A stretch of 58,251 nucleotides of DNA, filler included, from Sluysia triapertura (taxonomy: Eukaryota): assembly GCA_046118255.1 (NCBI GenBank). It is 4 parts of 4 records of this genome, joined end to end, with 100 filler letters (N's around TTAATTAATTAA, not from the genome) between each part and the next. Parts side by side here need not be neighbours in the genome. Positions count along the whole stretch, not along the records: positions 13,476 to 30,441 come from JBJNIA010194600.1; 3 more parts are not named here. One strand, given 5' to 3'. Positions 15,670 to 24,949 of the stretch are shown in pieces. Position 1 is the first letter of the stretch, and each line of letters opens with the position of its first letter. The notes beneath the pieces are model-generated. The model did no database searches, was not told the DNA's origin, and was given only the letters and a program-made list of their open reading frames with translations. The translations under genes were made by a program, and so were the position numbers.

Positions 15670-17039
15670 CTGAGCTGAAATCGGCCCTTTCTTCTTTGAA
15701 GGAACTGTTAATGGTGAACGTTACCTAGATATACTGAAGACTAAAGTGTTTCCTATTGTTATTGAGTTCCCCCATTTCGGTTATCTTCAATTTCAACAAG
15801 ATAGAGCAACTGCGCACTCTACCAAAGATGTTCGACAATGGCTTGGTGAAACATTTCCTGAACGTTGGATTGGACAAATCGAATGGTCTGCCAGATTCCT
15901 GGATCTGACACCGCTTGATTATTTTCCATGGAGAGTTCTAAAGAACACTGTTTATGCTAAAATTGATCAACTAAAATAAAGTATTAGCACGAATTGAATC
16001 AAATTTCAGAGGAAACTTGCCAGAAAGTATGTCGCAGTGTTGTCAAGAGTTGTCGTGCTTATATTGAAGTTTAAGGTGGATATTTTGAACATTTGTAAAT
16101 ACTAAATATACGTATTAAATTTGTCGTTTTGTTTTTGATATCTAATTTTTATTTAAGTTTGCTGCTCGGTTACTTTTTTGGATCCCTTTTATTAAGATTG
16201 TCATAGAAAACTCGATAAACGTAGTTTCAGACAATTCCTAGTGCGTAACAAATAATAATAAAAACCCTCAAATTAAAATAAAGTAAATTATAAATTAATT
16301 TAATTAGTTAGGAAGAAACCAATTAAATTATACGTTAAAGTTGATCATTTATGATTACAGATACGCTCATAAGTTATGCACTGTAACCAAACACTGTTAA
16401 AATTTATTTATAAATATATTTTAAATAATATGTAGAGTATAAATAAAAATCGTACCTAAATTGATTTGAAAATAGAGTTATTTAACTATATTGATTAATA
16501 TGAAAATATTCACGGAATCAAATAAAATTAATGTTTTAGAAATTATTTTCATTTTTGCTTCAATTAATAAATATATTTAAATATGTATTAATAAGTGAAA
16601 TGTATTAGATAAAATTTGGAATGTGTTTTACTATGAAAATAAAATATAATTTAAGCATTATTAAATATTAAAATTATAATATTAATATTAAATATTAAAA
16701 TTATAAAATTACATCCTGACTTGATATGGGCCTGTGTAACATAGGGTATTCTAATTTTAATATGTAGATATAAATATCCGCGACAAACCACCCCCACGTT
16801 TCCCTGGAGATGGGTGGGTTTGTTTGGGTTACTGGGTTACTAGTTTATTCGAGCGTACGTAATTTGTATTTTGTTAGAGTGAATATTACAGTAAATTTGG
16901 ATTGTTCCTAGTTTATCATTTATATACTACTCATTTGTGTATAGAACTTATTGTGTATAGAGGTTATTGTAAATCCACATTCATGGAACGAAATGGAAAA
17001 TTCACATTTTAAGTAGTCAAAGTTGATTTTAATGGTCTG

Positions 17040-18335
17040 CTAATGCCACCATTTAATCCGACAACAATCCAAATTTATACAAGAATGTGATTGAAGAGCT
17101 GTGGGTGATCCCGGATTCTTTATTTCAATATTACCTATGTCTTTTCTTTTTAATGATTTAAAAAACATTAAACAAACTTTATTAACTAACTTAATTACTA
17201 ACAAATAAGGCTTAAGGCCTGAACTATTTAATATTATCAACATTAACAATAAATACCAATGAACACAATATATTAATTTAAAACAATTAGTATAAGTTAA
17301 CAAAAATACTCCATTAAATGACAAATACAGTGTCTTATAAAAAACAGTTAGAAAACTTCGTCGAAAACCGGAAGAATTATCGTAACCAAAAGATAAATCG
17401 ACTACATAATTAGTGTTGACATTTTCGATATTACAAGCTATTTGAAGATAAATGTTTTTTTTCTCTTTCATTAACTCAAAACATCTTACATCATGGTCAT
17501 CTATATTCGATTTAGATAATTTTACGATAAAACGTCCAGCTTTCGGTATGCTTTTGTAAAAAATAGAATAACGTAAGTCGTGAGCTAATTCAAACGCGTT
17601 GTTGTAATAGCCTAATGAACAAAATGATGGCTTATATCTAACATTACAATATAATTTATGACATAACTTTATTTGAAATAAACTATCAGTTAAGTTGAGT
17701 TTAAAAAACAAAATATTATTCAAAACGAATAATTTAAATGTTTTAAAACATTTTATATTGTTTGATATTTTATATTTAGTAAATAAAATTTGTTTACTAT
17801 TAGTTATCATTCTGTCTCTTCGTTCACGCAGTACTTCTATTAAGCCATTCCCTTGTGTACTGTGTATATAAACTAACAGTAATCGCCTTTGATCAAAGAT
17901 TTGATAATTAGCAATGTCATTCATGCAAACTAAATAATCATTTCCACATTGATCGGCTCGCTCTTGCACCTCGAAACATACAGAAAAAGTAGACAGTTTT
18001 TTTATAAATTCACTAAAAGCTGCTTGATTAAATGAATTGTCTGAAGTATTCAACATTATTTTATAACGAGCTCCATTGTTTGGTACATAGCATTCCAGAT
18101 CCCCAGTGTAATAAACTAAGGGTTGTTAATATTTTAAAAGAAAATAATTACATTTATCTTCTTTAACTTGGATTTTTGCTTTAACATTTTCAACAGTATC
18201 AGTTGATTTAACTTGCTCTAATAATAATAAAAAATTGTTATTATTTTTATTAAAATTACTGTCATCTTCTGATTTTCCCAATATTCGTTCTACTTCACTC
18301 CATAACTTTCGGATATATGTAATAGATTTACTCAT
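17040..18335 (-). pseudogene. Intronless ubiquitin-like + internally deleted HECT E3 ligase ORF interrupted by one TAA
   Basis: ORFs 18126-18335 and 17040-18056 are in one frame. UBL: VKSTDTVENVKAKIQVKE...*QPLVYYTGDLE. HECT start: FIVKLSKSNI...GYDNSSGFRRSFLTVFYKTLYLSFNGVF. HECT end: IEIKNPGSPTALQSHSCINLD. Confidence 0.65.
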
Positions 18336-18549
18336 ATTGATAGTTAAAGATATCTAAGCAATCGTTGCTTATTTTCGTTAGCTTTAATCTTTTAATTGAT
18401 TATTATAATTTATTTTTATGATTATGTAGATTTAGAAATATGCAAATAAGCATCATATATTTCAAGAACTGTTTCAATGCGGGCTTGTACTATTGGTTTT
18501 CTAAAACATATTTCCGGGCAGTAAAAATTATTTAAACTACAAACATTTA

Positions 18550-23594: not shown

Positions 23595-23993
23595 ATGGAT
23601 AGAGCTACTGCGACAAAACGTCTAGGCACTTTGAAGCATTTTATATTGAAAAATATTTATTTAGATGAAATTATTAAGTATTTGAGTGACTGTACTGATA
23701 ATTGTCTTAAATTAAAATGCTGGCAAGATCGTCCACTAAAAATTGATAATAAAGTCCAATTAATTTTAAGTGCAAACGATCTTAAAAATAAAGATATAAA
23801 TAATGATTTTTATGATGTCAGTAGTGGTGTTCATTATGGTGAAAAATCTTGTGAAGGTTTAAAAGTTCTTTTTTATCGAGCTCTTAGTGATGATATGAAA
23901 TTTCGTATTAAATACATTAAATGTGATATACAACAAAGTACACGAAATTTATGTCAATTAATAAAGTGCTTTAGAGTAGGGAAGTTGTGGTGA
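23595..23993 (+). pseudogene. Intronless ORF with degenerate nuclear-receptor C4 zinc finger
   Basis: DVSSGVHYGEKSCEGLKVLFYRA...CDIQQSTRNLCQLIKCFRVG matches the NR DBD (DxSSGxHYGVxSCEGCKGFFRR...CxIxxxTRNxCQxCRLxKCFxVGM) but several Zn-binding Cys are lost. Confidence 0.8.
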
Positions 23994-24949
23994 ATAATTA
24001 CGCTCTTGACGGTTATGCAATTAGAAAACAGGTCATGGGTCGGATAATGGCAGATCATGCAATGGTATTCAAGGATTCCTAACGTTTATGTCACTTTATG
24101 GTTTCAATATTCGATTAAAATTTAATTAATTAATTTTGTCAAACATTACGAGTTATTGAACAGTTAATTTTCATTTTGGCAAACAATATCGCTAATTGTT
24201 ATCCTATTGTAAGTAAAAAGCAGTTAATTTACATAAATGAGATTTCTTGCACATATTTTAACATAAAAATTTTATCGTTTACAATTAAAAAAACGAAAAA
24301 ATCTATAAAATTTTTATTTTGCACGGTTTGAAATAACTTTATCGTTTATATAAATATTTTATTTTCAAATAGAGACTTTATTTTTTGATTACTAAGGGTT
24401 CGGGAAGCGGGATTTTTTAAAAATTTAAAATTATAGTTTATATAACCCTAATTTATCATTTCAATCTTTAAGAAAAGAGACGAGTATTGAACTCAATCTC
24501 CAAGTTAAATTTATGAGAGAATTTAATATTAAAAAGTGAAATAAACTAGCATACTTTAAAGATACAATAATAGAGAATTTAATTTTAAACAAGAAAGACA
24601 CTGGTAAAAGTAAACGAATGAGCTAAAGAGTCATTTGATAAACAGTTAGATTTTAGAACTCGGTCATTAAAATAATTATAAATAAATTTTGAGTAATTTA
24701 TATAAAAGGAATTAACAAGTATATATAGAGATATGGTTGAAATAACCATAAACAATTAAAGTACTACTATAAAAGTTATAATCTTTTACGAAAAAGAATA
24801 AGAATTATAAATTAAACATTTACCCACAAGTTGGAAGTTATTTTACATTTGTATAAAAGTTGAAAATTTAACATTAAAAGATAAACTCGAAAATAACTAT
24901 AAATAATAAATCTTGAGAATTAAAGTCAAAGCTTACTATTAATATTTGA

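Follow-up and report, generated by a model that had tools for sequence, protein, structure and literature searches.

What has brought pieces of ubiquitin-pathway and nuclear-receptor genes together, as long open reading frames (ORFs), within a few kilobases of the genome of Sluysia triapertura? The locus occupies positions 16780-24000 of the window, by which we mean the whole stretch of 58,251 nucleotides analysed here, and an initial annotation made from the sequence alone saw in it a divergent cassette of cargo-like ORFs, the remnant of a large gene-capturing transposon or of an endogenous DNA virus. Our results point to a leftward multi-copy unit, in which one ORF is a chimera of the host gene ZFTRAF1/CYHR1 and ubiquitin, and which lies directly downstream of repeats with TG..CA-type termini. 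It is likely that this unit is transposon cargo of some kind. Our preferred explanation, to which we give a probability of about 40%, is that a non-autonomous element of the long terminal repeat (LTR) type carries a chimera built by successive template switches and is copied by enzymes encoded elsewhere. The vehicle itself is unproven.

The GC content of the window is mostly 21-30%, as in AT-rich animal DNA, and the ORFs of the block are not a product of chance, because the longest frame in 16780-24000 (361 amino acids) and the number of ORFs of at least 100 amino acids (six) exceed those of all 300 second-order Markov simulations, where the longest frame was 171 amino acids and the mean was 0.16 such ORFs. 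They lie where they had been annotated: leftward at 17040-18335 and 18550-19548, rightward as a pair at 22199-22683 and a single frame at 23517-23993. They had also been called largely intronless. Dense and long they are, but two predicted GT-AG introns interrupt the block, of 36 nt (18151-18116) and 58 nt (20695-20752). Host introns in the window are short as well (43 nt in PBX, 37-53 nt in others). Base composition, the size of the introns and the character of the closest proteins may point to a planarian-type flatworm, which is our guess.

The leftward ORF at 17040-18335 (minus strand) consists of open stretches of 361 and 75 amino acids separated by a single stop. This sole stop lies in the 36-nt intron, whose removal would preserve the frame. 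Translated with an X at the stop, the frame gave a 427-residue query that matched 23 proteins in a phmmer-type search of 1.84 billion representatives. Ubiquitin-type proteins account for 22 of the 23, all aligned to residues ~35-55 (P0012 alone was inspected among them), and the remaining match, P0002 (phmmer E 6.3e-11, over three stretches), is a ZFTRAF1/CYHR1 homolog with RING and zf-TRAF domains (atlas score 0.97). With BLASTP, ORF residues 2-135 and 156-300 align to P0002, and the ORF lacks residues 101-223 of the latter, a segment that takes in the TRAF finger and the second part of the RING. The ORF thus has a ZFTRAF1/CYHR1-like N-terminus with a ubiquitin fragment of ~19-20 residues set inside it (18215-18159), a RING of half length that reaches 17919 and keeps three of eight zinc ligands, a deletion in place of the TRAF zinc finger, a whole CYHR1 TRAF-C domain (17858-17424) and a hydrophobic tail. 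Judging from these alignments, it is derived from ZFTRAF1/CYHR1, yet without the full RING and TRAF finger.

This make-up changes the identity first proposed for the ORF, a fusion of a ubiquitin-like and a HECT domain. The HECT domain has about 350 residues and a catalytic cysteine. The tail has only 127 amino acids, with two short motifs that we take, by eye, to resemble the ends of a HECT domain; Pfam found no HECT match in the ORF, and the C-terminal 136 or 126 amino acids have no match in the PDB at E<=10. Since there are matches to P0002 and to ubiquitin and none to HECT, we relabel it a ZFTRAF1-ubiquitin chimera. The broader proposal of ORFs assembled from host modules thus stands for the ubiquitin-pathway and nuclear-receptor fragments, which have sequence matches, but not for HECT. 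A word-based homolog search and the atlas gave no match for the 361-residue ORF, an ADP-ribosyltransferase reading made by eye found no match and was replaced by ZFTRAF1, and the AlphaFold predictions made for two ORFs, at a mean pLDDT of 32.4 and 35.8, were not informative. The ubiquitin piece (18159-18236) reaches a summed depth of 44,327 at 18194, far above its flanks, and one contig departs at 18236, the ZFTRAF1/ubiquitin junction. This piece is possibly a module amplified by itself, or it gathers short AT-rich chance matches.

Copy state was read from contigs of four public runs aligned to 13500-26500. Run X1, from the organism itself, carries 0.81 of the sampled words of 16200-26000, runs X2-X4 carry 0.06-0.12, and none of the four is on record as RNA. 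Contig depth is not copy number, and our comparison covers 40 of 726 differences, 15 of 716 joints, and 32 pieces (8 from X1, 24 from X2-X4). The left arm, ~17.0-19.4 kb, exceeds unique contigs in depth by a factor of 15-100: listed places within the chimera have depths of 564-1391, and the X1 contig at 18678-19188 has a depth of 269.8 with no substitutions and one gap, whereas the other seven of the eight listed X1 pieces are unique (depth 11.4-18.9). Ten of the 24 listed pieces from X2-X4 fall within 17092-19326 with 0-6 differences and three more have 7-31, so near-identical and older copies coexist. The left arm is therefore multi-copy, across both ORFs and the spacer. The shared sequence begins abruptly near 17006-17035, just past the stop codon; we place its approximate edge at 17006-17039, where a unique X1 contig ends (17035), and this edge has no poly(A), terminal inverted repeat (TIR) or target-site duplication (TSD). 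The case in which each ORF is single-copy is thus contradicted for the left arm by depth and by copies, while the right arm lies largely on unique contigs.

The presence of the sequence in X2-X4 might suggest spread to other species. We rejected this idea, because over three unrelated high-copy repeats the depths in X2-X4 track those in X1 at ~1/300 to 1/1100. These runs are best read as a dilute carry-over of the same DNA, of which only the repeats assemble, and not as independent hosts.

The second leftward ORF, a coiled-coil frame in three pieces at 18550-19305 (minus strand), lies within the region 18550-19548, and the hydrophobic stretch upstream of it (to 19449) is of low complexity. It matches no Pfam family, its coiled-coil piece was unmatched in a word-based search among longer proteins, and its source may be gag-like or host.

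Could the left arm simply be an expanded, functional host gene family or its segmental duplicates, for example a TRAF-C adaptor that has lost its RING? The 361-codon frame is open in DNA of 27% GC, the TRAF-C domain is whole, a host-sized intron sits in frame, and none of the nine variant codons listed for the left ORF creates a stop. Yet eight of these nine are non-synonymous and one synonymous, in a small and non-random sample (12 of the 40 listed rows, among 726 overall), as for neutrally decaying cargo. In addition, the RING, ubiquitin and nuclear-receptor parts are fragmentary and have lost ligands, frameshifts break the coiled-coil ORF in the present copy, and the shared region starts abruptly beside the stop codon. 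We regard a functional family as rather improbable.

Two repeats with LTR-type termini lie directly 5' of the leftward ORFs. The first, of very high copy, spans 19437-19857 and ends with TTCCCTACA (TGTAGGGAA on the minus strand). It includes the tandem duplication noticed initially, confirmed at 73 nt (19548-19702), and a C-poor tract (7 C against 41 G in 19700-19850). X1 bins at 19142-20009 have depths of 8e4-2e5, loose contig ends fall at 19437, one joint lies at 19859 and another skips one tandem unit, and at 19857 a contig of depth 52.9 departs into a different repeat. The second is the end of another repeat family, at 19934-20281, with a 58-nt array of 2.5 units (19934-20080) and the terminus CTCCCAACA. 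Positions 9268-9545 align with 19994-20273 (score 166, null maximum 44), and the former segment, the family's other copy in the window, forms the end of a TG..CA element of 1765 nt (7787-9551). The TG..CA-type ends at 19857 and 20281 thus coincide with homology boundaries. A gradient from terminal repeats at 1e5 to cargo at 1e2-1e3 is the pattern of solo LTRs versus internal regions.

Such termini recur elsewhere in the window. The 1765-nt element at 7787-9551 has TGTAGGGA..GCAACA ends, starts on a homology boundary and is a candidate solo LTR; it is built of segments repeated at 14-410, 38959-39461, 46578-46977 and 19994-20281. A 159-nt tRNA-bearing element at 15511-15669 (plus strand) has TGTT..AACA ends, a perfect 4-nt TSD, a tRNA-like core and a bin depth of 5e5, with a second, partial copy from 35601 (minus strand); no two-LTR copy was seen. 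These features agree with a solo LTR of the Helenus type; in animals, Helenus elements make 4-nt TSDs and are listed for six phyla, flatworms not among them (PMC10886601). Integrase-type elements are thus common here, and the 159-nt element, with its perfect TSD, shows them to be active in this genome. A Penelope-like or Terminon origin was considered through hammerhead motifs, which gave no Rfam match at E<=5 and one chance core-motif match, and the idea of a telomere repeat failed.

The enzymes of a vehicle were sought with Pfam in all six frames of 16.2-27.6 kb, where we found no transposase, RepHel, PolB, capsid, ATPase, integrase, gag, env or pol domain, in agreement with the initial failure to recognise a transposase, Rep, PolB or capsid gene. 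The six frames of 30.55-38.8 kb likewise held no gag or pol domain. Pfam also missed a Tc1/mariner relic at 15201-16187, so that very decayed pieces could escape and these negatives are weak for decayed genes. This relic has 57-nt TIRs at 88% identity and transposase-like remains recognised by eye, and it hosts the 159-nt element.

Another candidate is the remnant of an endogenous large DNA virus or of a Polinton/Maverick with host-derived accessory genes. DNA viruses and Polintons typically have densely packed short ORFs, signal-peptide/transmembrane pairs and cargo from the ubiquitin pathway, as does the block; Polintons occur in planarians (PMC8532177). However, there is no PolB, capsid, ATPase, integrase or Rep domain, viral contig scans gave no relative for any of the three ORFs tried, metagenome scans gave no matches, the introns are host-sized and the GC content is host-like. 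The viral origin offered in the initial annotation is thus not borne out, and we consider it, together with the Polinton variant, highly improbable.

Under the LTR-type explanation, successive template switches within retro-particles would have joined the pieces of host ZFTRAF1/CYHR1 and ubiquitin that make up the long frame of the left 2.4 kb, a multi-copy unit. Its promoter would come from the neighbouring terminal repeat, mobilisation would occur in trans, and the frame may be kept open for the element's RNA, or for a product of another kind, while its domains decay. A G-rich run before the TGT at 16785 resembles a polypurine tract, by eye only. Several observations weigh against this explanation. 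In this copy no second copy of either repeat encloses the cargo, the minus strand of 19301-19560 has no CA followed by a TGG primer-binding site (PBS), no TG..CA pair with a TSD encloses the unit or the block, and gag, pol and integrase domains are all absent from 16.2-27.6 kb. The 4-nt TSD of the element at 7787-9551 has one mismatch, and the single pair found is about what chance would give. The TG..CA repeats are abundant enough that they could be independent insertions here, and the copy evidence comes from contig depths and from the partial sets of differences, joints and pieces described above. Finally, sense GT-AG introns persist in the left ORF and in a fragment at 20.3 kb. This is the main difficulty, because an RNA cycle would tend to remove introns.

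The retained introns are the reason why we keep in play a capture at the DNA level, by a Helitron or Pack-TIR type transposon (with Ginger-like TGT ends or of another superfamily) moved in trans. Multi-copy fragments of several genes would fit such a process, multicopy Pack-TIRs are known in animals according to passages of PMC8277862, and a GC-rich hairpin (16783-16821), with CTAG-T 19 nt beyond it, lies at 16783-16843 (plus strand). TGT termini with 4-nt TSDs also suit Ginger elements. The hairpin signature is the sole Helitron-like 3' end in 16190-26500, but one in six shuffles gave one too. The hairpin singled out by the initial annotation is indeed present, yet its folding is no better than that of dinucleotide shuffles (z 0.10 and -0.42). 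Moreover, it faces the block from outside, on a unique X1 contig (16142-17035, depth 11.4), and on the plus strand it would close something to the left of the block and not the block itself. No hairpin-CTRR closes the block on either strand of 16190-26500, no TIR pair surrounds the host fragments, as Pack-TIRs or Pack-MULEs would have, and no RepHel or transposase domain was found. We thus see DNA-level capture as possible but unlikely.

The right arm tells a different story. The ORF pair at 22199-22683 (plus strand, two frames) is signal-peptide-like and transmembrane-like, with no Pfam family. The chimeric ORF at 23595-23993 (plus strand; its frame is open from 23517) joins an N-terminal part to a broken nuclear-receptor finger at 23814-23981, and the finger first noticed there is real (Pfam zf-C4, E 4.9e-10), though only three of its eight zinc ligands remain. 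With these losses, which include the first Cys pair, DNA binding by the finger is not to be expected. By eye the N-terminus of this ORF looked CARD-like, a reading for which searches gave no match. Between the arms, at 20282-20826 (plus strand), lies the decayed fragment of a gene. Its SURP-like motif is weak (Pfam Surp E 0.17, under the cut-off), and the fragment contains the predicted 58-nt intron and has no match in the PDB.

Might the entire 16.8-24 kb still be a single large element whose cargo is transcribed divergently? All bins at 17.0-23.9 kb have a summed X1 depth of at least 200, against 29-30 in the bins at 25218-26085, and the ORF-bearing intervals 22278-22766 (bin depth 602) and 23588-23871 lack long unique contigs, which hints at other copies. 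However, right-arm bins sum to only 200-600, a sum of 162 is reached even beyond the block in a bin that lies on a unique contig, and four of the eight listed X1 unique contigs cover most of 21571-24512 (21571-22278, 22766-23119, 23127-23588 and 23871-24512). Among the X2-X4 pieces listed, none is near-identical to any part of 20282-24000. No TIR, direct repeat or homology joins the two arms, nor do they share ends, an LTR pair or a TSD. The oppositely skewed tracts cited in favour of a single cassette are present but not special: the window has 12 and the block two, and the C-poor tract is unrelated to the G-poor, CA-rich tract at 20951-21460 (plus strand; 22 G against 83 C in 21010-21460), with an alignment score of 38 for a null mean of 38. 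CA-rich tracts were also considered as a shared repeat and discarded, since the single pair flagged among 45 consisted of AT-rich sequence of low complexity. A single 7-kb divergent element is thus not supported, and we think it distinctly improbable. The ORFs on the right likely represent what is left of another, older cargo, back to back with the left unit, and the block probably holds two neighbours rather than one divergent cassette.

At the other extreme, the ORFs could be independent processed pseudogenes lying together by chance. The right arm may be near single-copy, and decayed ORF islands like these occur elsewhere in the window. This explanation is contradicted for the left arm, which is multi-copy across both ORFs and the spacer, and it fits poorly with an in-frame fusion of at least two genes, with the presence of introns and with the lack of poly(A) at the left edge. 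We give it very little credence.

How does the left unit compare with known systems? Tan et al. 2016 (PMC5131818) describe, for flies, fish and mammals, LTR-mediated retrocopies with several parents that stay mobile as non-autonomous elements, and LARDs are named in passages of PMC6431247. The unit resembles them in its fused partial copies of host genes, its several dispersed-looking copies and its LTR-type termini beside the ORFs, but here there is no second LTR, PBS or TSD, and a sense intron persists. The planarian Burro elements, as sections of PMC6431247 present them, carry Smc coiled-coil, MATH/TRAF-C and ubiquitin-like domains, and the giant Gypsy elements Burro/GYPSM1 have gag, env and pol in an ORF of 4,900-5,100 amino acids within 30 kb (PMC6431247, same sections). 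The cargo theme of coiled-coil, TRAF-C, ubiquitin-like and RING, with accessory ORFs, is shared. Unlike Burro, our locus has no gag, env or pol found by Pfam in 16.2-27.6 kb, and its TRAF-C comes from ZFTRAF1, in fusion with the remains of a RING and with part of ubiquitin. The multicopy Pack-TIRs known from animals (Ssk-FB4 is one) and the Pack-MULEs (PMC8277862) also place intron-retaining host fragments at several loci, but no TIRs and no TSD surround the left unit. Gene-capturing Helitrons, treated in a part of PMC6431247, similarly string together host fragments, and one hairpin-CTAG signature lies near the unit; this signature fails to close the unit, there is no RepHel, and no matching 5' A-TC end was seen. 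Portions of PMC11410931 and PMC8532177 served as background on planarian repeats. Literature searches for ZFTRAF1 with a transposable element, and for chimeras of gene fragments captured by retrotransposons of flatworms, returned no paper in the library searched.

Other parts of the window contain decayed sequence too. Long-ORF islands lie at 37300-38650 (plus strand, 143 amino acids), 40980-42101 (minus, 230), 54951-55499 (minus, 182) and 56579-57286 (minus, 235), some of them beside CA-rich tracts, with BTB-like and kinase-like motifs recognised by eye and no support from Pfam or the PDB. These further islands suggest that decayed cargo is widespread in the genome. A GC-rich island (41%) at 54860-56060 contains decayed ORFs and is bordered by a small hairpin. 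A very high-copy repeat at 13480-14300 (minus strand, bins at 2-5e5) resembles, by eye, an L2/CR1 LINE at its 3' end, and decayed retro-gag-like motifs were seen by eye at 34400-34900 (minus strand); neither has Pfam support. Ordinary short-intron host genes lie at 27700-28969 and 9600-13235 (both minus strand), where Pfam identifies PBX (PBC domain) and a GOLGA2-like golgin, and a TRPM-like exon was recognised by eye at ~50143-50487 (plus strand).

Overall, this locus is a case of a known process, the capture of fragments from several genes, with new cargo and an absent vehicle. Such capture is well documented in plants and sparse in animals. A young, multi-copy ZFTRAF1-ubiquitin chimera that stays open after the decay of its domains would be a tractable case for the gathering of ubiquitin and apoptosis modules by animal elements, as in Burro, and for the question of whether a protein or the RNA of the element benefits from the open frame. 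There is also a bolder and improbable scenario, in which an undescribed family of mobile elements in this animal, perhaps one whose class has no name as yet, joins fragments of ubiquitin-signalling and nuclear-receptor genes one after another into long, open, expressed, intron-bearing chimeras. If this were true, the products might include, for example, RING-less TRAF-C decoys, and the family would be a working exon-shuffling machine in an animal genome.

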